Position numbers and translations under genes: made by a program. Under the pieces are notes generated by a model, which ran no database searches, was not told the origin of the DNA, and saw nothing but the letters and a program-made list of their open reading frames with translations. From positions 12,685 through 76,684 of IMG/VR virus record IMGVR_UViG_3300032164_000004: DNA of 64,000 bases; one strand, written 5' to 3'. The DNA comes from a virus. Shown piece after piece: positions 693 to 38,867 of this stretch (within the stretch, counting starts at the first letter, position 1; each line of letters starts with the position of its first letter).

Positions 693-724
693 TGGGGGTC
701 GGATGCTTAGGCGTTCGGTCCCCC
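693..724 (+). terminator. GC-rich hairpin between gp19 and gp20
   Basis: GGGGGTCGGATGC-TTAG-GCGTTCGGTCCCC pairs with several G-U; no U-tract. Confidence 0.45.
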
Positions 725-738
725 ACATACATATTAAT

Positions 739-3441
739 ATGGCCACAAAACAAAAACCTAAAACAAACAGACGTCCTGTGACGAAGAAGAATGATACTAA
801 AGGTCAAATCATAAATGAACAGTTTGTTAATGTTATAGAAAACCAAGTACAAAATGGGGAAATAACTTTATCAGAGGCTTTTCAATTATTTGGTTTTCAA
901 TTAGGTAAAAAAGATAAAGGAAAAGAAATTAATCCTTCGTTTGCTATGCCTGCAAATGAGGATGGTGCTCTTACCCTCCAAACAGGTGCAATCTATGGCA
1001 CATACGTTGACATGGATGGTACTGCAAAAAACGAAGTAGAATTAATTACTAGATATAGAGAAGCCGCATTACATCCTGAATGTGATTCGGCTATTGAAGA
1101 TATTGTAAATGAATCTATTGTATGTGAGGAAGATGAACAAGTAATAGAAATAAACCTAGAAGAATTTCCATTACGTGGTTATAGTCCAGAATTCGGCCAA
1201 TACGTGAAAGCTGAATTTGATAATGTTTTAGACCTTTTAAACTTTAGAGATGAAGGGCACAACATATTCAAACGTTGGTATATTGATGGAAGATTATTTT
1301 ACCATACTATTATAGATAATGAAGCTCCAGCAGAAGGTATTAAAGAATTACGTTATTTGGATCCTAGAAGAATACGAAAGATTCGGGAACAAAAGAAAAG
1401 GTTAAATGAGTTTGGTGTTGAAGTTGTGGATAGAATTGATGAATATTATGTTTATAATGAGCGAGGAATAAACAACGCAAATGCGACCGCTGTTATAGGA
1501 GTCCGAATATCAGAGGATTCCATTGTTTATTCCCATTCAGGATTAGTAGAATCCGGTAAAACACATATAATTTTAAGTCATCTACATAAAGCTTTAAAAC
1601 CATTAAATCAACTTCGCCATATCGAAGATGCGGTGGTAATTTACAGATTAAGCCGGGCGCCGGAACGTAGGATATTTTACATTGATGTTGGTAATTTACC
1701 TAAGATAAAAGCCGAACAATACCTTAGAGATATTATGTTAAAGTATCGGAATAAGTTGGTGTATGATTCCAATACTGGTGAATTAAGAGACGATAAGAAA
1801 TTCTTATCGATGATGGAAGACTATTGGCTCCCCCGTCGCGAAGGTTGCATTTGCCTAGACGAGAAGATAAGTCTTTTAGATGGTAGATCTTGCGAGCTAT
1901 CAAAATTAATCAAAGAACATAATTCTGGAATTCAAAATTATACGCTAAGTGTGAGTTCAGATGGTACCATAGTACCTGGTAAAATTTCATGGGCTGGTAT
2001 AACTAGGAGAAATTCGGAAGTAATGAAAATTACTTTAGATAATGATGAAAGTGTTACCTCTACTTTAGACCATAAATTTATCTTGAGAACAGGTGAAAAA
2101 ATTGAGGCAAAAGACTTAAAAGTTGGTGATTCTTTAATGCCTCTATACACTAGATTGCATCACGTTTCTCCAAATAGAAAGAGTGGAGAATATTTACAGA
2201 TATTTGATAATAAATCCGAAAAATGGAAATTCACACATACATTGGTATCCGATTATTTTAATCGTAAAAAAGAAATTAATGAAGTTGTGCACCACGATAA
2301 TCTCAATAGATTTGATAATAGTCCAAAAAATCTCACTTTGATGGATAAAAAGAAACATTGGGCATTACACTCCACAATGGGTACCAAATCCTGGGAGAAT
2401 GGAAATCGAGAGGAACATTGTAAGAATCTTTCTATTGCCGGTAAAGAATTTTTTGAAACTGAAGAGGGATTAAAAAGACGCCAAGAAATCTCCGACAACA
2501 ATAGAGTAAATCCAAATATAGTGAACGGTTTTACTAATGGTCGAGAAAAAATAAAAGCTTTAAGAGAACAGGATAAATTAAATCTTTCTAAAGAAGAATA
2601 TCTTGCTAAATGGTCTCCTGGTCTTAAAAAGATGTTAGAAAATAATTTACGTATAAAGGAAAACAATTTACAAGTAAAAGCCGCACATAATCATAAAGTT
2701 AAATCTATTGAGTTTTTAACCGAACGAATGGACGTTGGAACTTTAACAATTGATGCTAATGAGGAGTATCACGATTATCATAATTTCGCCCTTTCATGCG
2801 GCATATTTGTAATGAATTCGAAAGGCACAGAAATAGGTACTCTTCCTGGTGGTGAAAATCTGGGAGAAATTACCGACGTTGAGTATTTTGAACAAAAATT
2901 ATATAGGGCTTTAAATGTACCTATATCTAGAATTAAGAGTGAGGGCGGATTTAATCTTGGTCGTTCGGCTGAAATTTCTAGAGATGAAGTCAAATTTTAT
3001 AAGTTTGTTGTCCGTTTAAGAAAGAGATTTACTCAATTATTTTTCCAAATATTAAAGACTCAACTTATACTAAAAGGTATAATCCAAGTTGATGAATGGG
3101 AGAATTTAAAGAGGGGTATAAAATTTAAGTTTGCTCAATCATCTTATTATTCGGAACTAAAAGCAGGAGAAATACTTAGAGAACGTGTTGCTACCTTAAC
3201 AGAAATGAATCCTTTTGTTGGTACGTATTATTCTATAAATTGGATAAGAAAGAACGTATTAAAACAAACTGAAGATGATATTGTTGAAATAGACCAACAA
3301 ATAAAAGGAGAACAAGAAATTATGGCTAATACGTTGGCAACCCAAGCATTAGCACAGCAAATCGCCGGAGCTAGTATGATGGCATTAACACCACAGGCGC
3401 AGGGACCCAATTTCCCCAAATCAAAGCAAGAAGAACCTTAA
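739..3441 (+). CDS. gp20: portal vertex protein containing an intein
   Basis: WYIDGRLFYH, YRLSRAPERRIFYIDVGNLPK, EDYWLPRREG|SKGTEIGTLPGGENLGE; ATG 739 preferred over 703. Confidence 0.95.
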   Translation: MATKQKPKTNRRPVTKKNDTKGQIINEQFVNVIENQVQNGEITLSEAFQLFGFQLGKKDKGKEINPSFAMPANEDGALTLQTGAIYGTYVDMDGTAKNEVELITRYREAALHPECDSAIEDIVNESIVCEEDEQVIEINLEEFPLRGYSPEFGQYVKAEFDNVLDLLNFRDEGHNIFKRWYIDGRLFYHTIIDNEAPAEGIKELRYLDPRRIRKIREQKKRLNEFGVEVVDRIDEYYVYNERGINNANATAVIGVRISEDSIVYSHSGLVESGKTHIILSHLHKALKPLNQLRHIEDAVVIYRLSRAPERRIFYIDVGNLPKIKAEQYLRDIMLKYRNKLVYDSNTGELRDDKKFLSMMEDYWLPRREGCICLDEKISLLDGRSCELSKLIKEHNSGIQNYTLSVSSDGTIVPGKISWAGITRRNSEVMKITLDNDESVTSTLDHKFILRTGEKIEAKDLKVGDSLMPLYTRLHHVSPNRKSGEYLQIFDNKSEKWKFTHTLVSDYFNRKKEINEVVHHDNLNRFDNSPKNLTLMDKKKHWALHSTMGTKSWENGNREEHCKNLSIAGKEFFETEEGLKRRQEISDNNRVNPNIVNGFTNGREKIKALREQDKLNLSKEEYLAKWSPGLKKMLENNLRIKENNLQVKAAHNHKVKSIEFLTERMDVGTLTIDANEEYHDYHNFALSCGIFVMNSKGTEIGTLPGGENLGEITDVEYFEQKLYRALNVPISRIKSEGGFNLGRSAEISRDEVKFYKFVVRLRKRFTQLFFQILKTQLILKGIIQVDEWENLKRGIKFKFAQSSYYSELKAGEILRERVATLTEMNPFVGTYYSINWIRKNVLKQTEDDIVEIDQQIKGEQEIMANTLATQALAQQIAGASMMALTPQAQGPNFPKSKQEEP
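1846..2817 (+). mobile_element. intein (324 aa) with HNH endonuclease domain, in portal
   Basis: Begins CICLDEKI; block B TLDHKFI; HNH-like VVHHDNLNRFDNSPKNL; ends HNFALSCGIFVMN followed by Ser+1; removing it restores the conserved portal motif. Confidence 0.92.
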
Positions 3442-8094: not shown

Positions 8095-9432
8095 ATGAGC
8101 GAACGAAGAACTAATGATGAATTTATAGCCGAGTCAAAAAATCTTTATCCTAACCGATATGATTATACACTAACCAATTATATTAAGAATAACCAAAAAG
8201 TCCAAATAAAATGTATTGAACATAATCATCTATTTGAACAAACACCAGCAAACCACAAATATTTTGAAGGTTGTCCTATATGTTTCGCAGCAAACCAAAG
8301 AGAAAAATTTGTAAAATCTACTTCCGGTTTCATAAAAGATAGTATAAAGAAACATGGTAATATATACGATTATTCCAAAACCGATTATCAGGATATTTTA
8401 CATAAAGTCTTAATTACCTGTAAGAAACACGGAGATTTTGAGCAACATCCCACCAATCATCTAAAAGGTTGTGGTTGTCCTAAATGTGGAATAGAAAAAC
8501 TTCCTGGATCTTATTCGTGGGGTTTTTTTACCAAAAATCCAGATAAAAAATATATCAAAGCCCTCCTATATAATATCAAATTCAATGATATCTATAAAAT
8601 CGGTATAACTACAAAATCCATTAAAACACGATATACCGGCCTCAAAATCCCCTATACCATCCTATGGGAAAAGGAGATGCCTTTATGTGATGCTTGGGCT
8701 ACCGAACAATTATTACTCCAAATATACAAAGATTATCAAATAGATCCTCAGATTAAATTTGGTGGTAAAGGTGAATGCTTATCTATAGATATACCAAAAG
8801 AATCTGTAATACACATATTTTTCGATGAATGGACCAATAAAAAGGACATAGTATTATCCCGATTTAATATCAAAAACCATTTACAGTGTATTAAAATTCC
8901 TGCCAGAAAATGTGAAGTAAAGCAAGTGCTTTCTAAAGAAGCCAACGACTTTTTAAGACAGACCCATATCCAAGGTTCTTCAAATTCATCCATTTCTTTG
9001 GGTCTGTATAATTCCAATAAATTAGTATCCATTATGACATTTGGAAAACCTAGATTTTCTAAAACTGCGGACTGGGAACTTATCCGATATTCAACAGAAT
9101 TGGATACTATAGTTCAAGGTGGGGCTTCTAAATTATTTAAAACCTTTATAACTCAATATAATCCAAAAAATATAGTATCATATTCGGATAAACGCTGGAA
9201 TATAGGAGAAATATATCACATCTTAGGATTTAAATATACGCACACCTCTTCTCCAAATTATTGGTATACTAAAGAAGATAGTACTATATCCCGCGTTCAA
9301 GCACAGAAACACAAATTACCAAAATTATTGGATAATTTCGATCCTAAACAAACCGAATATCAAAATATGATGAATAATGGATTTCAAAAGATTGTAGATA
9401 ATGGTAATGATGTGTATTTGTGGTCCTCATAA
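8095..9432 (+). CDS. putative homing endonuclease (Zn-ribbon repeats plus Hef-like C-terminal domain)
   Basis: CKKHGDFEQHPTNHLKGCGCPKC repeats, YKIGIT, ARKCEVK...HIQG...WELIRY...SYSDKRW. Confidence 0.7.
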   Translation: MSERRTNDEFIAESKNLYPNRYDYTLTNYIKNNQKVQIKCIEHNHLFEQTPANHKYFEGCPICFAANQREKFVKSTSGFIKDSIKKHGNIYDYSKTDYQDILHKVLITCKKHGDFEQHPTNHLKGCGCPKCGIEKLPGSYSWGFFTKNPDKKYIKALLYNIKFNDIYKIGITTKSIKTRYTGLKIPYTILWEKEMPLCDAWATEQLLLQIYKDYQIDPQIKFGGKGECLSIDIPKESVIHIFFDEWTNKKDIVLSRFNIKNHLQCIKIPARKCEVKQVLSKEANDFLRQTHIQGSSNSSISLGLYNSNKLVSIMTFGKPRFSKTADWELIRYSTELDTIVQGGASKLFKTFITQYNPKNIVSYSDKRWNIGEIYHILGFKYTHTSSPNYWYTKEDSTISRVQAQKHKLPKLLDNFDPKQTEYQNMMNNGFQKIVDNGNDVYLWSS

Positions 9433-9440
9433 ATACCATT

Positions 9441-9998
9441 ATGGCAGCCACAACTTACGAAAATATCGGCGCTTGGAATAAACAACCAGACAATGTAAAT
9501 TTTTTACATACCGTCAAATTTAAATTTGCAATACGTAAAATACCTCATTGCAATTATTTCTTAAAGGGTGCTAGATTACCCGCTATAACTTTAGGTACCG
9601 CTATACAACCAACACCATTCCAAGATCTACCAGTTCCTGGTATTAATATGAATTGGGATGAATTGGAAATCAGATTTTTGGTTGATGAAGATATGAAAAA
9701 TTACCTTGAGATTGTTGAATGGATGCGAGGTCTTGGATTAGTTAAAAATTTTGATAAGTACGCCACATTAAAAACGGAAAATACCGACCTTAATTCTAAA
9801 TGGGGTGGAATTTGGTCAGATGCTATATTACATGTTTTAACTAATCAAGCCAATGCAAATGTTAATTTTATATTTAGGGATGCTTATCCAGTCTTTTTAA
9901 GTCCTATTGAATTTTTAAGTGATGACCAAGAAGCGACGCCGGCGGAAGCTATCGTACAATTTAAATATGCATACTACGATTGGGAGTATGTAACCTAA
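9441..9998 (+). CDS. gp3: tail completion/sheath stabiliser
   Basis: NFL..KFKF..KIPHCNYF...LPAITLG; FLVDEDMKNYLEIVEWM; late promoter CATAAATA at 9428-9435. Confidence 0.8.
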   Translation: MAATTYENIGAWNKQPDNVNFLHTVKFKFAIRKIPHCNYFLKGARLPAITLGTAIQPTPFQDLPVPGINMNWDELEIRFLVDEDMKNYLEIVEWMRGLGLVKNFDKYATLKTENTDLNSKWGGIWSDAILHVLTNQANANVNFIFRDAYPVFLSPIEFLSDDQEATPAEAIVQFKYAYYDWEYVT

Positions 9999-10444
9999 TG
10001 AAAACCTTTAAAGAATTTATAACAGAAAATTATAGAGACCCGGATAGTATAAAGGGATGGATGAACCCTAAAGGTGAAGTACATTTATTAGATTCTGGAA
10101 CAGAACATGGTTTAAATTTACCCACAAAATTAAATTCTCTTCCTAAAATAAAAAGTCCAGAATATTATACGAAATCTGAAATAGGTTCTAATTTAGCATT
10201 ATCTAAAGGATATGCAAGATTTGGAAAAGAAGGTGTAGGTGATAATTATGTTCATTTTGACCATACCACAGATGATGGTAAAAAATCAGCATATCATGCC
10301 TTAAAATATTTAAATCCTAATAATATACATCCTTCTCCACACATAAACATACAAAAATCGAAAGAATTGCATTCCGACAAAAATAATCGTGAAGAATTAA
10401 AAACCAATAAAAGATCTGAAGCCTTAACATTTATTTTAAAATAA
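9998..10444 (+). CDS. probable internal head protein
   Basis: N-terminus MKTFKEFITE resembles the T4 capsid-targeting sequence. Confidence 0.5.
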   Translation: MKTFKEFITENYRDPDSIKGWMNPKGEVHLLDSGTEHGLNLPTKLNSLPKIKSPEYYTKSEIGSNLALSKGYARFGKEGVGDNYVHFDHTTDDGKKSAYHALKYLNPNNIHPSPHINIQKSKELHSDKNNREELKTNKRSEALTFILK

Positions 10445-18900: not shown

Positions 18901-19108
18901 TATGAAGGTAGAGATTACTATTACAGGTACGGGGGAATATAATGATGAATATACTATTCCTGCTTTTATTGCTGAAGTGGTCGATTTTATGAAAGATAGC
19001 GGATTTTCTAGGGAATCATTCGCTCAAAGTGGAGTATTCCAACCAGAAGATGATGAAGTGAATTGGATGGGTGTATTCGAATTTGAGTATTTAAATGGCT
19101 ATAATTAA
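18890..19108 (+). CDS. hypothetical protein
   Basis: Short ORF in operon. Confidence 0.4.
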   Translation: MRINMKVEITITGTGEYNDEYTIPAFIAEVVDFMKDSGFSRESFAQSGVFQPEDDEVNWMGVFEFEYLNGYN

Positions 19109-20000
19109 ATCATTATCGTTTAATGATGTTATGTTGGTTCCTAAAAGGAATTCAGTAAGTAGCCGTGCGGAAATTGATTTAAGTAGTAATATTGGAACTC
19201 TGGAGTTGGGTGTTCCAATTATTGCATCTAATATGTCATCCGTTTGTGGACCTAAAATGTGCGTTGCTATGCATAATGTTGGTGCATTAGGTATATTACA
19301 TCGGATGTGTACTATCGATGAACAGATGGAGATGATGTGTGAAATACCAAATGATGTTAATTTTGGTATATCTTTTGGAATTGGTAAAGAATGGATAAAT
19401 CGTATTCGGCTTATTGAAAGATTTAATAATAAGAGTAGAACTATTATTGCCTGTTTGGATGTAGCCCACGCTCATTCTGATAAAGTAATGGATATTATTG
19501 ACGAATATTATAGGAAATTTCCTTATAATTTAATTATAGGGAATATAGCTACAGTCAGAGCCGCATGTGATATTTATAGTATTATTCCAAAAGATAGAAT
19601 AATGTCAACGGCTTTAAAGTGCGGAATCGGCGGAGGTTGTTTTACTTCGGATACAAATATTTTTACTATTACTGGTAATAAACGTATAATGGATATAGTT
19701 ATTGGAGATTTTGTATTATCTCATTCTGGTAAATTTGAAATGGTAATTGATACGTTAAGAAGGTCAGAAACCGAATGTTTATATAATATAAACCAAACTA
19801 AATGTACAAAAAACCACGAATTTTTTGTGTTACATAAAAAATATGAACATATCATAACGGACAATAATTTAGAAGATTTTGCGGAATGGGTTTCGGCCGA
19901 AAAATTAAATGATGATTACCTATTGATTGAAAGGTGTGAAAATTATAAATATGGTATGGGAGATGAATCTCTTATACCTTATGGAAAAAATAAAAGTTGA
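19095..20000 (+). CDS. IMPDH/GMP reductase N-terminal part fused to N-intein
   Basis: LSFNDVMLVPK, PIIASNM, LDVAHAHS, GNIAT, KCGIGGG then CFTSDT (N-intein from 19638). Confidence 0.9.
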   Translation: MAIIKSLSFNDVMLVPKRNSVSSRAEIDLSSNIGTLELGVPIIASNMSSVCGPKMCVAMHNVGALGILHRMCTIDEQMEMMCEIPNDVNFGISFGIGKEWINRIRLIERFNNKSRTIIACLDVAHAHSDKVMDIIDEYYRKFPYNLIIGNIATVRAACDIYSIIPKDRIMSTALKCGIGGGCFTSDTNIFTITGNKRIMDIVIGDFVLSHSGKFEMVIDTLRRSETECLYNINQTKCTKNHEFFVLHKKYEHIITDNNLEDFAEWVSAEKLNDDYLLIERCENYKYGMGDESLIPYGKNKS

Positions 20001-20751
20001 ATGTGCTTGCGGTAATTTAAAATTAATAGGAAAGTATTATTTTTCACATTATTATAAAAATAAATCTTTTGTTTGTGGATCATGTCGTCAAAAAGGAACA
20101 AATAATTCATTTTATGGAAAAACGCATTCTGAGGAATTAAAGAATAGATTAAGCACTGAACGACGAATTTCAAATCTAGGAAAAAATAACCCATTTTACG
20201 GAAGAACACATTCTGAAGAAACAAAAAAAATTTTATCGGACAAGAATAAAGAAAACCAAAAAGGAATATTAAATCCTTTTTATGGTAAAAAACATACGGT
20301 CGAATCTCGATTGAGGATGAGTGAATCTCAAAAAAATTATTATAAAAACCATCCTGAAGCTAGAGAGGCTCAACGTATTCGTATATTAAAACGTATAGGT
20401 CAAAATAAATATTGTATTACGAAAATAGAAAAAATAATTCGTAGTAAATTGGAATTATTAGGTGTAAATTTTAAGTATAATTTTATTTTGGATGGTAGGT
20501 TTCAATATGATTTTTTGATATATCCAAATATAATTTTAGAAGTACAGGGAGATTATTGGCATGGTAATCCTAAAATATACGGGAAAAATAAACGCCCATT
20601 AAATGAAAGACAATTATTTAAAATTAAACGAGATAAATTGAAGAAGAAATATTCTGTAGAAAAAGGATATAAAATATTTTATATTTGGGAATCCGATATT
20701 AATAAAGGTATATTTGAAGAAATGGATTTATGCTTACAAAATTTAAATTAG
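19927..20751 (+). CDS. free-standing homing endonuclease (NUMOD3 repeats plus Vsr/DUF559-like nuclease)
   Basis: Three NPFYGK(T/K)H(S/T)EE-like repeats; YDF...ILEVQGDYWHG...RD...GYKIFYIWE. Confidence 0.85.
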   Translation: MKGVKIINMVWEMNLLYLMEKIKVECACGNLKLIGKYYFSHYYKNKSFVCGSCRQKGTNNSFYGKTHSEELKNRLSTERRISNLGKNNPFYGRTHSEETKKILSDKNKENQKGILNPFYGKKHTVESRLRMSESQKNYYKNHPEAREAQRIRILKRIGQNKYCITKIEKIIRSKLELLGVNFKYNFILDGRFQYDFLIYPNIILEVQGDYWHGNPKIYGKNKRPLNERQLFKIKRDKLKKKYSVEKGYKIFYIWESDINKGIFEEMDLCLQNLN

Positions 20752-21359
20752 TTCCGATTACAAAAATAGAAAAAAAAGAATATGTTGGAGATGTTTTTGA
20801 TTTAACGGTAAATAATTCTCATTCATATTGTGCTAATAATAAAATAGTACATAATTCTTTATGTACAACCCGTATTAAAACTGGTTGCGGAATACCAACA
20901 TTTCAGTCGATTATGGATATATCCGGATATATGCGTACAGTTGGTGATCCTGTAGGTATTATCGCCGATGGCGGCATTAAATATTCTGGAGATGTGGTGA
21001 AGTGTTTAGCTGCTGGTGCGAGTGCGGTAATGGTTGGTAAATTATTTGCTGGTACGGATGAATCTCCTGGTTCGGTTATTAAAGCTGGTGATGGCGGACT
21101 TTATAAGATTTATAGAGGTAGTGCCTCATATGGTGATAAGAAACTTAGGGGTGAAGAAACAAATAATATTGAAGGTGAAGAAACGTTGGTACCGTATTCA
21201 TATGAAAATGTATCGGATATTATAAAAGATTTAAAGGATGGTTGTCGTTCTGGTTTCTCATACTGTGGCGCTTATAATATAACCGAGTTGCAGGAAAGAG
21301 CTGAATTCACCGAAATTACTAACAGTGGCTACATAGAATCAACACCTCATGGGAGATAA
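20730..21359 (+). CDS. C-intein (42 aa) fused to IMPDH/GMP reductase C-terminal part
   Basis: MLTKFKL...[21 protein letters not shown]|[29 protein letters not shown]. Confidence 0.9.
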
Positions 21360-21525: not shown

Positions 21526-23133
21526 ATGTTAAATTATTGGACTAAAAATAATTTTATTATCGATGATCCTAAAATTAATCCAACATTTTATGAAATCCTT
21601 TCTATGAATGGGGTTCAATTAACTGAGTGGATTGATTTTATGCGTTCGGAAGTTTTACGTATATGGGATGAAGTTGATATACCACCACTTTCAGGAGCTT
21701 CCGAAGAAGAAATGATACAGGATTTTAGAGAAATGCAAGGTTTTCCTGTTTCTAAATTTCAAAGAACGGATGAATTAGATGGGCTGGATAATGTTATTTT
21801 GAATACGACATTAGGGTTGGGTTCGTGTGTTAATCAATGGTTTCCAACCATGATGAAATCAAAAATAAATTATAATACATCTATTAAAAATGGTGATAAA
21901 TTTAATGGATATTCTGTGTATGATCTTTTTAAAGATCCTAGATTTAGACGTAGAATGCAATTAGGATGCCGAAGGCATTTTAGACGTGATAGCTTTTATC
22001 GATATTCTATAAGCATCGAAAAAGAAACCGCCATGGGAATAGTACCATGTAAAACCGGATTAGATTGGATGAAAATTTTTCATAGTAATCCTAATATTTT
22101 TGAAGGTTATGATTTTTGGTTAAGTGAGGTTGATGTTACTAATGTAAAAGGATCTGGTTATACCGAAGTAAATCTTAATAAGTTTTTGTGGTTATCTAAA
22201 GATGAGGTGATATCTTCTTGGAAAGAAGGTTATTTAAATGATGCTTGTAGGATAGCTAATTTACCAAAGAAGTTGGATAACAACAAACAATATCACATTA
22301 GGTTCTTTAAAAAAGTAGATCGTTTATTTCCATTGGGTTTTACGGCGTTTAAGATTGGATATATTCAAGTCGCGGTAAATTTCCCTCCATTAACAGCGAA
22401 ATATCTTTATGAAAAATATACAGACCATATTAAAAAACAGAATCATATTATTTTATATGACCCTTCTTCAGGTTGGGGCGGACGTATTATTGGGGCTATG
22501 TCTGTTAGGGATCGCAATATTCATTATGTTGGCACAGATCCTAACACAGATAATGTTGTGGATAAATCGAGTAGCCGCTATGAATTGGTAGCCAATTTTT
22601 TTAATAATGCCGTACTTTCAAATAGTTTGAGGAGTTTTTGGGGCGAAACAGGACACACATTTGAAGTTTTTCAAGAATGTGCGGAAGATATTCATAATAA
22701 TCGGGATTTTAAAAAGTATAAAGGTAAATTGGATTTAGTGTTTACTAGTCCGCCGTATTTTAATAGAGAAGGATATTCAGAAGATAAGTCCCAATCGTTG
22801 TCGAAATATCCACAATATGATTCTTGGAGAGATAATTTTTTATATCCAACATTAAAAACTTGTGTTGAATATTTAAAGAAGGATAGATATTTACTTTGGA
22901 ATATTGCAGATATTAAAGTTGGTAGTTTATATTATCCTTTAGAAGAAGATTCTAAGAAAATTCTTTTAGATTTAGGTATGGAATTTATTGGTATTGAGAA
23001 GATGTGTTTGATGTCCATGCCTGGTTCCAATCGTATTGGTGATGATGGTAAACCAACAGCAAAGAATTTTTGTAAAGTAGAAGGTAAGTGGAGAAAATAT
23101 GAACCAATCTTTGTCTTTAGAAAACCAAAATGA
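21526..23133 (+). CDS. DNA amino-methyltransferase (N6-A/N4-C)
   Basis: YDPSSGWGGR (SAM binding) and FTSPPYF (catalytic) motifs. Confidence 0.8.
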   Translation: MLNYWTKNNFIIDDPKINPTFYEILSMNGVQLTEWIDFMRSEVLRIWDEVDIPPLSGASEEEMIQDFREMQGFPVSKFQRTDELDGLDNVILNTTLGLGSCVNQWFPTMMKSKINYNTSIKNGDKFNGYSVYDLFKDPRFRRRMQLGCRRHFRRDSFYRYSISIEKETAMGIVPCKTGLDWMKIFHSNPNIFEGYDFWLSEVDVTNVKGSGYTEVNLNKFLWLSKDEVISSWKEGYLNDACRIANLPKKLDNNKQYHIRFFKKVDRLFPLGFTAFKIGYIQVAVNFPPLTAKYLYEKYTDHIKKQNHIILYDPSSGWGGRIIGAMSVRDRNIHYVGTDPNTDNVVDKSSSRYELVANFFNNAVLSNSLRSFWGETGHTFEVFQECAEDIHNNRDFKKYKGKLDLVFTSPPYFNREGYSEDKSQSLSKYPQYDSWRDNFLYPTLKTCVEYLKKDRYLLWNIADIKVGSLYYPLEEDSKKILLDLGMEFIGIEKMCLMSMPGSNRIGDDGKPTAKNFCKVEGKWRKYEPIFVFRKPK

Positions 23134-33952: not shown

Positions 33953-34234
33953 ATGGGAACATTAAATGCTTCGGCTGTTAGAACACAACTTTTAGATGTT
34001 AGAAATTTATCCATACGTTTGGCTGGTTTAAATAGTGTAAGTTCGGCGGAATATCGTGCCGGAAAATTTTTAGAATTTGTGGATGAAGCTATTTTAGCTC
34101 TTGGAAAAGTAGAAACGGAATTAGAGTTAATAGATTTAGAAGTTTCGGCTTCGGAGGCAGAAGCTGAAATTGTCCGTCAAACTAATAAGAGGAATTTTAT
34201 TTTAGCGCAAATTGAAGAAAAAAGGAATTTATAA
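33953..34234 (+). CDS. hypothetical coiled-coil protein
   Basis: ORF with RBS AAGGA. Confidence 0.5.
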   Translation: MGTLNASAVRTQLLDVRNLSIRLAGLNSVSSAEYRAGKFLEFVDEAILALGKVETELELIDLEVSASEAEAEIVRQTNKRNFILAQIEEKRNL

Positions 34235-34235
34235 T

Positions 34236-34628
34236 ATGTTTGTTGTGAAAACAAAACTCGGTTTTAGTAAAATTCATGGTATTGGTGTTTTTGCAGAAGA
34301 ATTTATTCATAGAGGTTCTGTGGTGCAAGTGTATGATACTATGTTAGATAAAGCGTATCCTAAGAGTATGGTAAGACATGCGAATCCTCTTTTTCAGGAA
34401 TTTATTAAGCAATATGCATATTTAGATGGAGATGTGTATATTTTACTTCTTGGAGATAATGCTAGATTTTTAAATCATTCTTTATATCCAAATTTGGTTG
34501 GTTTTGTTGGAGATAATAGAACAGATATGGCTCATAGAGATATCGATATTGGAGAAGAGTTGACGGTTAATTATTATGAATTTGATGATGAGGCGGTTTT
34601 AAAATTGGGAGCTTTTTCTAGTGGTTAA
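34236..34628 (+). CDS. SET domain protein (putative lysine methyltransferase)
   Basis: SKIHGIGVFA, RFLNHS..PN, GEELTVNY. Confidence 0.88.
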   Translation: MFVVKTKLGFSKIHGIGVFAEEFIHRGSVVQVYDTMLDKAYPKSMVRHANPLFQEFIKQYAYLDGDVYILLLGDNARFLNHSLYPNLVGFVGDNRTDMAHRDIDIGEELTVNYYEFDDEAVLKLGAFSSG

Positions 34629-35145: not shown

Positions 35146-35622
35146 ATGCTAAAGATTGAAACTGAACAATATGGACTACTTACTATTGAGTTTCGGCACA
35201 ATAGCGGTGATCCCGGTGTAACCCTTAAACGTAGATTGGCTGAGTATTATAGGAGTGTATCTAATCTCGAAGATCGTCGGCTTACTGGAGCCGAACACGA
35301 TGAAGTTAATTCGTTTATTGATGGTGTTTTGGATGTTGTTGATATATTGTATACTATGGATACCGTTCTTCTAGTTGATACCGGAAAACATAGATATACA
35401 GAATGTCAAATTAAGTTAGATGGTAGTTTTTATCCTGAAACCGACTCTGGTAGAACACCGGAACCCATATATAACACTTTTGGATATGCTTGGGTATTTC
35501 CTACAGATACTTTTGTTAAAGAAGATGGTAGGCTTCTTTCATTGAAAAGAGCTATGGATGAATTACCTGGAATTACACGTAAAACTCGCGCGGAAATTTG
35601 GTCGGGTTATTACAACAGATAA
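35146..35622 (+). CDS. hypothetical protein
   Basis: ORF with RBS, first gene of a coupled operon. Confidence 0.5.
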   Translation: MLKIETEQYGLLTIEFRHNSGDPGVTLKRRLAEYYRSVSNLEDRRLTGAEHDEVNSFIDGVLDVVDILYTMDTVLLVDTGKHRYTECQIKLDGSFYPETDSGRTPEPIYNTFGYAWVFPTDTFVKEDGRLLSLKRAMDELPGITRKTRAEIWSGYYNR

Positions 35623-36398
35623 TGTTACCAGAATTACATAAATCAATAAAAGATTTTGGAGGCGTGATCCTACTTCTTGGTGAAGTGGGATCACGCGCGT
35701 ACGGAACTAATACTGTCGATTCTGATTATGATGTTATGGGAGTTGGTTTCGGACCAATAGATTATTATATTGGGATGAATAATTTTCATAGTAGCGGTAC
35801 TTTTGAATTTCGAAAGAACGTGGACGGCATCTTAGAAGGAAGCATTTATGAAATCCGTAAATTTGTAAGGCTATGTACATCATTTAATCCTAATGTTATT
35901 CCTCTATTGTATATTAATCCGGATAATTATTTAATTAAACATGATTATGGTTTGGATTTATTATATAGAAAGGATTTGTTTCTTTCAAAATTAGTATATA
36001 GTACGTTTGTGGGATATGCTAAAGCACAAATGTCAAGAGCAGCACACGGAATTACTGGACGGTTGGGTTTAAGGAGAAAAGGTCTCATTGAGACATATGG
36101 TTATGATGTAAAAGCGGCGAGCCATACTATTAGACTTTTAAATATGGCGTGTGAAATTTTAACCGATGGTAAGGTTAATGTTTGTCGAACTGGTATAGAT
36201 GCTGATGAATTAATCGCTATTCGCAACGGTAAATATAATTGGGATGAATTTGTTCAATTGACGGAAGAAAAATTTGAAAATGTTGAAGTAATTTGGGAAC
36301 ATTCTCCTTTACCAGAAAAGCCCGATGAAGAACCCATTAATAAGTTAGTTACTAATTTAATATATGATGCGGTTATTACTCAATGGAAAAAAAATTAA
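35622..36398 (+). CDS. Pol-beta-superfamily nucleotidyltransferase (YcgL/RlaP-like)
   Basis: GSRAYGT...SDYD..G, NPNVI, YDVKAASHTIRLL. Confidence 0.85.
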   Translation: MLPELHKSIKDFGGVILLLGEVGSRAYGTNTVDSDYDVMGVGFGPIDYYIGMNNFHSSGTFEFRKNVDGILEGSIYEIRKFVRLCTSFNPNVIPLLYINPDNYLIKHDYGLDLLYRKDLFLSKLVYSTFVGYAKAQMSRAAHGITGRLGLRRKGLIETYGYDVKAASHTIRLLNMACEILTDGKVNVCRTGIDADELIAIRNGKYNWDEFVQLTEEKFENVEVIWEHSPLPEKPDEEPINKLVTNLIYDAVITQWKKN

Positions 36399-36604
36399 TT
36401 AAGTGTTTTTTAAAAGTATTTCCTAATTATTCTCCTAAAGAATTTTTAACTTTAGGTTCTGATACTTGCGAAGAATGGGATTCTATTACTGTTATAAGAT
36501 TAATTATAACTGTAGAAACTGAATTTGGAATCCGATTTACTTCCGATGAAATGGAAAAGATGGATTCTTTCCAATCATTTATGGAGGTTTTAACAAGTAG
36601 ATGA
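36383..36604 (+). CDS. acyl carrier protein
   Basis: 73 aa, acidic; WDSI phosphopantetheine site; VETEFGIRF. Confidence 0.8.
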   Translation: MEKKLIKCFLKVFPNYSPKEFLTLGSDTCEEWDSITVIRLIITVETEFGIRFTSDEMEKMDSFQSFMEVLTSR

Positions 36605-37593
36605 AAGGATTAATAACAGATTTAGATAATACGCTTTGGGGTGGAGAAGCTGGAGAACAACCAAGTTATTCACTCGATACTACCGGGATGTATTCACAAT
36701 ACCAGAGTTTTTTGAAACGATTACATCTTGAAGGTATACTTTTAGGAATAGCTAGTAGGAATAATCATAATCGTATTGTTCAGGTATTTGAACACAATAA
36801 ACATCATTTTTTACCTTTAGATTATTTTACTTTACGGCCGAGTTGGGGGCCTAAGTATAAAACTATTACCGAAATTTTAAATACTTGGAATATATTGGCG
36901 AGTGATGTGGTATTTGTGGATGATAATCCTTTTGAAATAGCACAGGTTGAATCTGTGCATAATATCAATACAATATTATTTGATCCTAATGATTTTTGGG
37001 GGGTTATTGAAAAATTACGAAAGTATTTCCCTAAAAAGGAAAAGATCTTATATGAGGATACTATTCGGGCTTCTAGTATAGAGCGAGGCGTTGAATTTGA
37101 AAGAGAGAAGAAGGAATTTGATAATGAGGATAAATTTTACGATAATTTAGACCAGCATATTACGGTTTCTTATGATGTGCGGTTTTGTGAACGCTCCTTC
37201 GAATTAGCTAATAAAACTAATCAGTTTAATATGGATGGTAAGAGATATACTTGGAAAGAATGGAATACATTAGAAGGAATAAGTTTTTCATTATCATATT
37301 CGGATAAATTTGGAGATTTAGGTAAAATTTTGGTTTGTAGGATAGATAGTTCCGGAACTATTCGTACTTTTTGTATGAGTTGTAGGGCAATTGGTCGTCG
37401 GATAGAATATTTTGCTTTACATTTAGCGTTTGTTATGTTTGACTATATTAAATTTCCTTATATAGCAACATTTTCTAATGCTCCATTTTATAAGTTTATG
37501 AGAACGGTATTGATTGGTGAGGAACGTTTCTTTAATAAAGGTGAATTATATTTACCAAAAATATTAGATAATTGGTGTACTGATGCTGCATAA
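36601..37593 (+). CDS. fkbH: FkbH-like HAD-IIIC protein (glyceryl-ACP synthase family)
   Basis: ITDLDNTLWGG, ASRNN, SWGPK, VFVDDNPFE, KTNQFN, DKFGDLG, MSCRAIGRRIE. Confidence 0.88.
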   Translation: MKGLITDLDNTLWGGEAGEQPSYSLDTTGMYSQYQSFLKRLHLEGILLGIASRNNHNRIVQVFEHNKHHFLPLDYFTLRPSWGPKYKTITEILNTWNILASDVVFVDDNPFEIAQVESVHNINTILFDPNDFWGVIEKLRKYFPKKEKILYEDTIRASSIERGVEFEREKKEFDNEDKFYDNLDQHITVSYDVRFCERSFELANKTNQFNMDGKRYTWKEWNTLEGISFSLSYSDKFGDLGKILVCRIDSSGTIRTFCMSCRAIGRRIEYFALHLAFVMFDYIKFPYIATFSNAPFYKFMRTVLIGEERFFNKGELYLPKILDNWCTDAA

Positions 37594-38053
37594 AGCTACA
37601 TTAGAGGAATTGTCCGAGATACAAAAAGGATTTAAATTGTATGTAGATGAAGGACATTTTACATATATTAGGCATGATTATATAGTTAGGTCTATTGAAG
37701 CTAAGGAAGTATTTTACGATAATGGAGTTATAGCTATTATTAGACAGATGAAACGTGCTGGAAGAATAGGAAATTTTAGATACGGCGCTGGAGCCTGGCA
37801 TATACATAAATTTTTGTCTTTGGATAAAAAGAATACTGTTGCTCCATTCGTTTTTATGAGAAATTTTTTGGATGAATATGTTAAATGCGGATTAGTATTT
37901 TGTACTGTACATATTTCAAATTTACTTTCAATTGGATTTTGTAAAGCTATAGGATTTAAAGTTGTTGGTGATATTAGTTGGTCGGATGGTACAATTCCTG
38001 GGGTTGTTCTCGCATTAAATAGATCTGAAGGGTTTATTAGCCAATTATGTTAG
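37583..38053 (+). CDS. GNAT-like acyltransferase
   Basis: TVHISN..SIGFCKAIGF C-terminal GNAT pattern. Confidence 0.6.
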   Translation: MLHKATLEELSEIQKGFKLYVDEGHFTYIRHDYIVRSIEAKEVFYDNGVIAIIRQMKRAGRIGNFRYGAGAWHIHKFLSLDKKNTVAPFVFMRNFLDEYVKCGLVFCTVHISNLLSIGFCKAIGFKVVGDISWSDGTIPGVVLALNRSEGFISQLC

Positions 38054-38490
38054 AGATACGTGGTAATATTTGGGATTATTGGGATAGTGGGGCGAATATT
38101 CTCGTTACTACCAACGGAACAGTAACTTCTAATAAATGTGCTGTTATGGGGAGAGGTATAGCTTTACAAGCTAGTAGAAAATTCCCACATTTAAAGAGTC
38201 GTTTAGGACAACAATTATTACATTATGGTAATCACGTTTTTCGTTTTTATGATTTGAAGATAGTAACATTTCCGGTTAAGTATAATTGGTATGAAAAGGC
38301 TGATTTGGATTTAATAGATCGAAGTGCTAGAGAATTAAAGACTTTGTTTCCTGAAGGTTCGAGCGGATTAGATCCTATTTATTTGGTTAGACCTGGTTGT
38401 ATGAATGGTAAATTAGATTGGGAAGATGTTAAACCGGTTTTAGAAAAATATTTAAATAATAATTTCATTATAGTTGAAAGGAATTTATAA
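38047..38490 (+). CDS. macrodomain protein (ADP-ribose binding/hydrolase)
   Basis: GNIWD, TTNG...VMGRGIA, FPVK, PGCMNGKLDW. Confidence 0.8.
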   Translation: MLEIRGNIWDYWDSGANILVTTNGTVTSNKCAVMGRGIALQASRKFPHLKSRLGQQLLHYGNHVFRFYDLKIVTFPVKYNWYEKADLDLIDRSARELKTLFPEGSSGLDPIYLVRPGCMNGKLDWEDVKPVLEKYLNNNFIIVERNL

Positions 38491-38832
38491 ATGCAAATGC
38501 AAGTGACCGAACAAGATATTGAGGATATGTTAAAGGCCAGTAATATCGGTGTTCAGATTATAGAAACTCAATTAAATGGTATTAAAGCCATGGTGGATAA
38601 TGTTAATAGTTTAGCACAAGTTGTTATTAGAATGGAACGCGCCACTCCGAACCCCAAAGAACAAGGAGCTTATGATTTTTTTACTGGATTAACAAAATTC
38701 TTAAATGGTCTTGGTGCTGAAAAGCAATTAGAAGGACAAAAATTGTTAACCACCGTAAAGCAGTTGGAAGAGGCTAAAAGTAGGATTAGTTCGAATATTA
38801 TTATACCTACTATGAATGAAAAAAATCTTTAA
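38491..38832 (+). CDS. hypothetical protein
   Basis: Coupled ORF. Confidence 0.5.
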   Translation: MQMQVTEQDIEDMLKASNIGVQIIETQLNGIKAMVDNVNSLAQVVIRMERATPNPKEQGAYDFFTGLTKFLNGLGAEKQLEGQKLLTTVKQLEEAKSRISSNIIIPTMNEKNL

Positions 38833-38838
38833 AAAGAT

Positions 38839-38867
38839 TTGACAATTCTTTTTTAGTGTGTTATACT
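38839..38867 (+). promoter_or_regulatory. sigma70 promoter for the Y-RNA-like/Ro60 locus
   Basis: TTGACA-17-TATACT with TG; late-type CATAAATA also at 38883-38890. Confidence 0.8.

Follow-up and report, generated by a model that had tools for sequence, protein, structure and literature searches.

A 64,000-nt stretch of viral DNA, hereafter the window (positions 12685-76684 of the 76.7-kb IMG/VR record IMGVR_UViG_3300032164_000004, or G000, by estimate about 42% complete), carries at positions 35146-38832 a block of genes, three of which encode an acyl carrier protein (ACP), a short FkbH protein and an acyltransferase of the GNAT fold. We consider it probable that these three genes form a cassette inserted between the genes for an RlaP nucleotidyltransferase and a macrodomain protein, that the GNAT would move a glyceryl group from the ACP to an amine, and that the acceptor would come from a methyltransferase-like (MT-like) enzyme encoded at 21526-23133. 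To judge from comparative genomics, FkbH-ACP chemistry, known before from antibiotic assembly lines and bacterial surface polymers and not from phages, appears here to have been recruited by T4-like phages to feed a GNAT that is predicted to be independent of coenzyme A (CoA). The features concerned, including the open reading frames (ORFs) at both ends of the block, are the following.

35146-35622, + strand: 158-aa ORF; no match in Pfam, NCBIfam or PHROGs
35598-36398, + strand: RlaP nucleotidyltransferase (PF10127, E 3.5e-22; phrog_388); upstream flank of the insertion site
36383-36604, + strand: ACP, 73 aa; predicted phosphopantetheine site Ser34 in W-D-S
36601-37593, + strand: short-form FkbH, 330 aa (TIGR01686), with a HAD-IIIC phosphatase half and a C-terminal Cys-bearing half; predicted glyceryl-ACP synthase
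37583-38053, + strand: GNAT-fold acyltransferase, 156 aa, of the carrier-linked clade I, assigned from fold and family-profile evidence
38047-38490, + strand: DarG-type macrodomain protein (NCBIfam DarG; phrog_335; PDB 5m3i/5m31); downstream flank of the insertion site
38491-38832, + strand: 113-aa ORF; sub-threshold matches only in Pfam, NCBIfam and PHROGs
21526-23133, + strand: N6_N4-methyltransferase-like (MT-like) protein, 535 aa, with an SPPY motif; candidate distal partner of the GNAT

The carrier protein, FkbH and GNAT cassette

Related gene clusters have been found in three other phages. In a 97-kb record that is 53% complete (G001; portal, gp46 and MT-like proteins 58%, 50% and 55% identical to those of the window), the locus L009 encodes an ACP (77 aa, 37% identical), an FkbH (340 aa, 39%) and a GNAT (158 aa, 55%) in the same order, again with overlaps at the junctions. 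The trio is bordered there by gp46 and a conserved 569-aa MT-like gene; RlaP is about 25 kb away, and tRNA genes are absent from the vicinity. In a 175.7-kb contig from a fourth phage (L105), genes for an ACP (42%), a short FkbH (36%), an O-methyltransferase, an MT-like protein, a PALP-like protein and a GNAT (35%) form one cluster. The remaining genome (G002), which is complete (179.7 kb with terminal repeats) and in which no FkbH was found, has at L096/L103 the order PALP-like gene, GNAT, 100-aa carrier protein, FabG-like short-chain dehydrogenase/reductase (SDR), AMP-forming ligase and MT-like gene. Here the AMP-forming ligase and the SDR take the place of FkbH in loading the carrier, while the GNAT belongs to the same clade as that of the window (34%). 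The sole support for the G002 carrier protein is structural (ESM Atlas feature score of 0.95 to carrier-domain clusters, TM-score up to 0.82); its sequence search of the PDB gave one match, an unrelated glutamate receptor at E 0.28.

The proposal of an initial annotation that the ACP and FkbH constitute a thiotemplated acyl-transfer unit with the GNAT as transferase is thus favoured by comparative genomics, the linkage being conserved as a complete trio in L009 and as ACP-FkbH and GNAT within one cluster in L105. On these comparisons, the trio is a self-contained mobile cassette and a conserved unit, and the GNAT pairs with a carrier protein whichever loader is present. Two further observations concern the same loci. 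The gp46-like recombination ATPase of G002 is split by an ORF of 366 aa whose product has an endonuclease domain (DUF559; L096 698-3998), and the GNAT gene of L105 is followed by a 291-aa ORF (9130-10005) whose motif, ...FENS...GYTTEK..., we take to recall GT10 fucosyltransferases.

The FkbH of the window scores 166.7 bits against TIGR01686 (cut-off 146.65; model positions 4-285 of 323) and, like that of L009, retains all residues that do not vary among 48 homologues. The HAD motifs (D7-L-D9-N-T11, corresponding to DxDxT, S52, K85 and D107-D108) are invariant or nearly so among these sequences, and S260-C261-R262-A263 is invariant in 48 of 48; in work on OzmB and FkbH, the glyceryl thioester is reportedly held by a conserved Cys in the C-terminal half of FkbH. 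In an AlphaFold2 model (mean predicted local distance difference test, pLDDT, of 86), the N-terminal half matches the HAD phosphatases BF1531 (3slr) and MDP-1. The nearest relatives are bacterial proteins of about 578 aa that are 40% identical and carry an extra N-terminal domain of about 225 aa, which is missing from the short forms of both the window and L009. Since the two phage proteins are sisters (SH-aLRT 69) inside a clade of 100% support in a tree of 127 rows, their history would agree with a single capture and prolonged retention thereafter.

The initial annotation had also not counted an FkbH module among the usual functions of T4-like phages, and the searches agree that it is unusual for phages: among 50,697 deposited phage records, just two, both unannotated faecal records, match FkbH, and none is matched by the GNAT of the window in tblastn or by the whole block at the DNA level. 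Single-protein scans of IMG/VR with the FkbH or the GNAT of the window returned nothing, and the same holds for a metagenome scan with a GNAT alignment and a scan of bacterial genomes with clade-I GNATs. A scan with a 12-sequence FkbH alignment returned seven unrelated viral FkbH-like loci and missed the true relative, and a broad alignment of GNATs contained no segment of sufficient conservation for scanning. Two viral contigs of 111-115 kb (L003/L004) encode a 1003-aa FkbH-like fusion and a phosphopantetheinyl transferase (PPTase) within a nonulosonic-acid cluster of NeuB, UDP-GlcNAc 2-epimerase, PglD-like and DegT genes, a viral use of FkbH that is distinct from that in the cassette and of glycan type.

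The matches of the carrier protein to ACPs are weak but concordant. Its 62 PDB matches are nearly all ACPs, and in the best of them, 2lml, the WDS site aligns with W32-D33-S34, so that the Asp-Ser site expected at the start of helix 2 is present. Against the ACP models of NCBIfam the best E-value is 4.8e-5, with at most 23 bits where the cut-offs are at least 66. The L009 protein has the same WDS site (in GDWDS) and that of L105 has WTS; both relatives are encoded beside FkbH, and a WDS-type ACP directly follows the FkbH-like gene in about half of 80 metagenomic loci. A hidden Markov model built from phage ACPs finds the window ACP at 2.6e-37, a circular value in that this ACP was one of the seeds.

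The GNAT has no match in Pfam, and its fold is assigned from a 61-sequence family profile that matches PDB GNATs at 8.6e-8, from an AlphaFold2 model (pLDDT 94.9) for which Foldseek lists Ard1, Naa50 and RimI (E down to 3e-7, TM-score 0.6-0.73), and from an ESM Atlas model (TM-score 0.88). The family comprises 107 detectable homologues, some of them fusion proteins. All four carrier-linked members (window, L009, L103 and L105) are without the glycines of the CoA-pyrophosphate motif Q/RxxGxG/A and without the motif-B Tyr, in place of which they have His or Cys, whereas the glycines and the Tyr are kept in all eight carrier-less relatives, five of which are encoded directly beside MT-like genes (L130, L141, L150, L164 and L166) and three of which are fusions (P0196, P0181 and P0226). 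The window protein, for instance, reads ...LDKKNTVAPF... and GFCKAIGF, with Cys at the Tyr position, where carrier-less relatives read ...NGNGK/A... and xFYxK. Because the loss of these motifs falls on exactly the four carrier-linked proteins, we infer, from a sample of four against eight, that this clade came to draw its acyl group from a carrier protein in place of CoA. Near bacterial FkbH genes (L022 and L054), weak GNAT matches at E about 1e-4 were judged to be generic members of the superfamily and set aside.

The RlaP and macrodomain genes on either side

The order of the nucleotidyltransferase, ACP, FkbH, GNAT and macrodomain genes and their overlapping stop and start codons, as given in the initial annotation, agree with the ORF and junction check: the overlaps are of 16 nt (RlaP/ACP), 4 nt (ACP/FkbH, ATGA), 11 nt (FkbH/GNAT) and 7 nt (GNAT/macrodomain). 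Overlap is generic in this phage, occurring in 35 of 80 adjacent same-strand ORF pairs of the window (44%). Inside the block, a scan for promoters and terminators gave no signal above chance, and a scan for the T4 late-promoter motif gave nothing above chance either. A near-consensus sigma-70-like promoter (TTGACA, 17 nt, TG-TATACT) lies at 38839-38867, 7 nt past the end of the block and ahead of the Ro60 region.

Both flanking proteins are assigned to families. RlaP matches PF10127 over its full length (79.8 bits, gathering score 23). The macrodomain protein matches NCBIfam DarG at E 4.4e-13 in the macro part only, with 49 bits against 250 for the full antitoxin, and the DarG macrodomain structure 5m3i at 1.7e-6; as it is without the DarT-binding C-terminal domain, it is not a DarG antitoxin as such. 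In G001 (C1:29023-30503), RlaP (42% identical), a 110-aa ORF and the macrodomain gene (49%) follow one another with no cassette between them, and in G002 (C1:135889-136707) the DNA that matches RlaP and that which matches the macrodomain gene are separated by about 110 nt, again with no cassette between. The two genes are thus conserved neighbours in three related phages. Elsewhere in phages both occur as stand-alone genes, RlaP in 670 records and the macrodomain in 124, in each case with no FkbH.

The block is thus composite: because both relatives have the pair without the cassette, RlaP and the macrodomain gene are taken to be an ancestral pair, between which ACP, FkbH and GNAT were inserted in the window phage. 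The initial annotation had drawn the nucleotidyltransferase and the macrodomain protein into the acyl pathway; given that the pair adjoins without the cassette in both relatives and that both are common stand-alone genes, this five-gene operon was wrong in scope, while it was right in essence for the middle three genes. RlaP is known to extend damaged RNA 3' ends by one or two nucleotides (bioRxiv 10.64898/2025.12.29.696909), and phage macrodomains have been linked to NAD-dependent RNA repair and ADP-ribose processing (PMC7824862). That the two genes stay adjacent suggests that they work together, as a pair so far undescribed, in RNA repair or against ADP-ribosylation.

A methyltransferase-like module and the candidate acceptor

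The product of 21526-23133 is 55-59% identical to the 569-aa orthologues of L009 and L096, both encoded beside the cassette. Members of this family (the window protein and L103-L182) have 525-573 aa, an SPPY motif and a large N-terminal domain, and are usually encoded just after gp46, with a PALP-like gene as the commonest neighbour. Fusions connect the family with the other components: P0196 and P0181 join an MT-like part to a GNAT, their non-GNAT parts being 46-55% identical in BLAST to the window protein and its L009 orthologue, while in P0226 the GNAT is fused with a PALP-like domain sharing 39% identity with the PALP-like protein of L009. A PALP-like part (396-623; 40%) and an MT-like part (654-781) are also fused in gp1 of Erythrobacter phage vB_EliS_R6L (KY006853, L102), an 830-aa protein annotated as a DNA modification methylase. 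This cultured phage, which also encodes an ACP (ORF 32), would offer a tractable model for the module. Relatives of the MT-like protein occur in at least 589 IMG/VR contigs; in the best 80 of these loci, within five ORFs of the MT-like gene, a PALP-like gene is found in 28 (nearly always directly upstream), a GNAT in seven and a carrier system in two. On the strength of the fusions and of this adjacency survey, the MT-like, PALP-like and GNAT proteins appear to be functionally linked, with the carrier system as a rare add-on, and the linkage provides a testable entry into an unstudied phage modification system.

The following sequence of events can be proposed. A PPTase of the host would activate the phage ACP; a host enzyme would be needed for this priming, as no PPTase was found in G000, G001 or the complete G002. 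FkbH, to judge by its family membership and intact catalytic residues, would dephosphorylate 1,3-bisphosphoglycerate and load the glyceryl thioester onto the ACP, as FkbH and ACP are known to do in forming glyceryl-ACP (PMC7489565). The GNAT, which is without the acyl-CoA-binding features, would then pass the glyceryl group from the ACP to an amine, and comparative genomics is the ground for this step. Acyl-ACP is also the donor of the GNAT-like LuxI enzymes (PMC4234381). The conserved neighbourhoods point to the product of the MT-like enzyme, partnered in relatives by a pyridoxal phosphate (PLP)-like enzyme, as the most probable acceptor. Speculatively, the acceptor could be a side chain on a phage DNA nucleobase, which is the leading guess; phages M6, ViI and PaMx11 offer a precedent, with a PLP decarboxylase and a GNAT acting on amino acids appended to DNA (PMC8989533). 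DNA as the target is given roughly a little less than an even chance, a sugar or glycan a distinctly smaller one and something else a smaller one still. A tRNA or other RNA target was set aside, because the L009 cassette is not near tRNA genes.

Taken further, and at a confidence that stays doubtful, the module might represent a carrier-protein-dependent hypermodification of nucleic acids, which would be the first of its kind: the MT-like enzyme, common across T4-like phages, would add an amine side chain to DNA bases and the CoA-free GNAT would cap it from the phage ACP, with swappable loaders (FkbH for glyceryl, AMP-forming ligase and SDR for a hydroxyacyl group) making the decoration diversifiable against restriction. 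The module may define a new family of DNA hypermodifications, of interest for the evasion of restriction and for labelling DNA by enzymes.

Several observations weigh against glyceryl transfer to a product of the MT-like enzyme. All phage records with the cassette are metagenomic. Profile comparison, suggested in the initial annotation as a check, placed FkbH above its cut-off and the ACP below the gathering score of PF00550 (18.4 against 20.8 bits); no PPTase was found in G000, G001 or the complete G002. The match of the MT-like proteins to the Pfam N6_N4 DNA methylase family is weak, at 25.6-34 bits around the cut-off of 26.7, even with the SPPY motif, and a sequence-profile search of the PDB found no relative. 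In the window, 13 kb separate the MT-like gene from the cassette downstream of it, and a PALP-like gene was not found; the cassette is therefore tied to the module by analogy with the three relatives. In tblastn, the L009 PALP-like protein matches only R6L, ZS04 and Mae-JY30, with no link to the decarboxylases of ViI or M6, and neither this protein nor the window GNAT shows similarity to gp226, gp52 or gp48 of the thymidine-modifying phages. The loss of the GNAT motifs, in a sample of four against eight, could be plain divergence and not a change of donor. Some neighbours are of glycan type, namely the O-methyltransferase of L105 (5240-5980; TylF/MycF/NovP-type sugar family, PDB E 6e-61) and a family 2 glycosyltransferase (GT2) near the L096 cluster, and bacterial FkbH-ACP pairs stand mostly with MBOAT, PPTase, MaoC, SDR, aminoglycoside-type N-acetyltransferases and NeuB or sugar clusters.

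These last observations belong to the most serious rival, which we hold to be unlikely without dismissing it: that N-acylation by the cassette, as by bacterial FkbH-ACP cassettes, is directed at an amino sugar or at a glycan of the virion or a surface, and not at nucleic acid. The neighbours of 80 FkbH-like loci include MBOAT (12), ACPS (8), Antibiotic_NAT (6), polysaccharide deacetylase and sulfotransferase genes; NeuB (nonulosonic acid) clusters with FkbH-like genes occur on viral contig L003 and at metagenome locus L022; the flagellar glycosylation locus of C. jejuni contains an FkbH-domain gene, Cj1302 (PMC7099621); and the GNAT of L096 weakly resembles PseH. Yet no NeuB, GT2, DegT-type or sugar-nucleotide genes were found in the 76.7-kb record, and the recurrent partners of this GNAT family, fused or adjacent, are MT-like and PLP-like proteins rather than sugar enzymes. 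A rather improbable alternative concerns the GNAT itself, which might be an ordinary acetyl-CoA acetyltransferase, or might act on the ACP-bound glyceryl group, with glyceryl-ACP then passing to a host enzyme. Most GNATs do take acyl-CoA, the relatives beside MT-like genes that are without a carrier protein keep the CoA motifs, and acetyltransferases of tetronate pathways act on the glyceryl-derived hydroxyl (PMC7489565); against this stand the disappearance of the CoA-loop glycines and Tyr in precisely the carrier-linked members and the survival of the GNAT-carrier pairing when the loader is swapped.

A single pathway of all five coupled genes, for instance a nucleotide- or ADP-ribose-linked glyceryl modification of RNA, tRNA or another polymer, is very improbable. 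It would fit the consecutive overlapping junctions with no internal terminator and the location of the block in an island of tRNA genes, RNA ligase and Ro60, but synteny largely refutes it: the flanking pair adjoins without the cassette in G001 and G002 and its members occur without FkbH in many phage records, the cassette of G001 lies elsewhere, away from tRNA genes, and overlaps of this kind are commonplace in the window. Least credible of all is that the phage captured the cassette recently from bacteria as a moron and has no use for it. The nearest FkbH homologues are indeed bacterial and the slots of the cassette are variable; however, the GC content of the cassette equals that of the phage, the GNAT belongs to a phage family, and the trio persists in phages whose copies are no more than 37-55% identical, with all catalytic residues preserved and FkbH freed of its N-terminal domain. 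Glyceryl transfer by the inserted cassette to a product of the MT-like enzyme is thus the reading that we prefer.

Related systems and further features of the window

Known systems resemble the cassette in part. The FkbH/ACP systems of polyketide biosynthesis (FkbH of FK520, Mad7/Mad8 for tetronate and Mad14/Mad12 for methoxymalonyl-ACP; PMC7489565) share an FkbH of about 330 aa with HAD and Cys halves beside a small dedicated ACP, as well as the predicted conversion of 1,3-bisphosphoglycerate to glyceryl-S-ACP. Unlike them, the window cassette has no polyketide synthase (PKS), FabH-like enzyme or dehydrogenase, its partner is a small GNAT, its host is a T4-like phage, and its FkbH is nearest to long-form bacterial FkbH-like proteins and not to those of PKS pathways. 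The bacterial surface-polymer loci with FkbH-like proteins and WDS-type ACPs (e.g. Cj1302, PMC7099621) share the FkbH subfamily, the type of ACP and the absence of a PKS, but have the additional N-terminal domain of about 225 aa and MBOAT, MaoC, SDR, PPTase or sugar neighbours, whereas the phage form is trimmed and accompanied by a phage-family GNAT.

Thymidine hypermodification (the PLP decarboxylases gp52 of M6 and gp226 of ViI and the GNAT gp48 of PaMx11; PMC8989533) likewise combines a base-modifying enzyme, a fold-type-II PLP enzyme and an amine-acylating GNAT in combinatorial sets. It differs in that the first enzyme here is MT-like, the donor would be a carrier protein in place of acetyl-CoA, and a DNA substrate is putative; no 5-hydroxymethyldeoxyuridine DNA kinase or aGPT-Pplase was noticed near the cassettes, for which no dedicated scan was run. 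Acyl-homoserine-lactone synthases of the LuxI type (PMC4234381, PMC8188788) provide an example of a GNAT-type fold fed by a carrier protein and of switching between CoA and ACP donors inside one family, but they show no sequence kinship, use S-adenosylmethionine as acceptor and transfer fatty acyl chains. Carrier proteins encoded by phages have been described in cyanophages P-HM1 and P-HM2 (ACP with ACPS) and in Erythrobacter phage R6L (PMC3037559, PMC5463345), where no FkbH or carrier-linked GNAT is reported; the P-HM ACPS contrasts with the cassette phages, in which no PPTase was found.

The window phage is a T4-like myovirus whose portal protein shares about 50% identity with those of cyanomyophages and of one Pelagibacter myophage; nearly all genes of the window lie on the + strand, GC content is about 33% and there are 16 tRNA genes, amid which a SET-domain protein (PF00856, E 5e-11) is encoded at 34212-34628. 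The portal gene (703-3441) specifies 912 aa, compared with 544 aa in G001, and its two homologous parts, residues ~56-381 and ~706-867, are separated by an insert of about 325 aa, probably an intein. The IMPDH/GMP-reductase-like gene (19095-21359) also looks split: the ORFs 19095-20000 (37%) and 20730-21359 (58%) match a single 338-aa protein of L009, a 274-aa ORF (19927-20751) lies between them, and the split may reflect an intein or a homing-endonuclease insertion.

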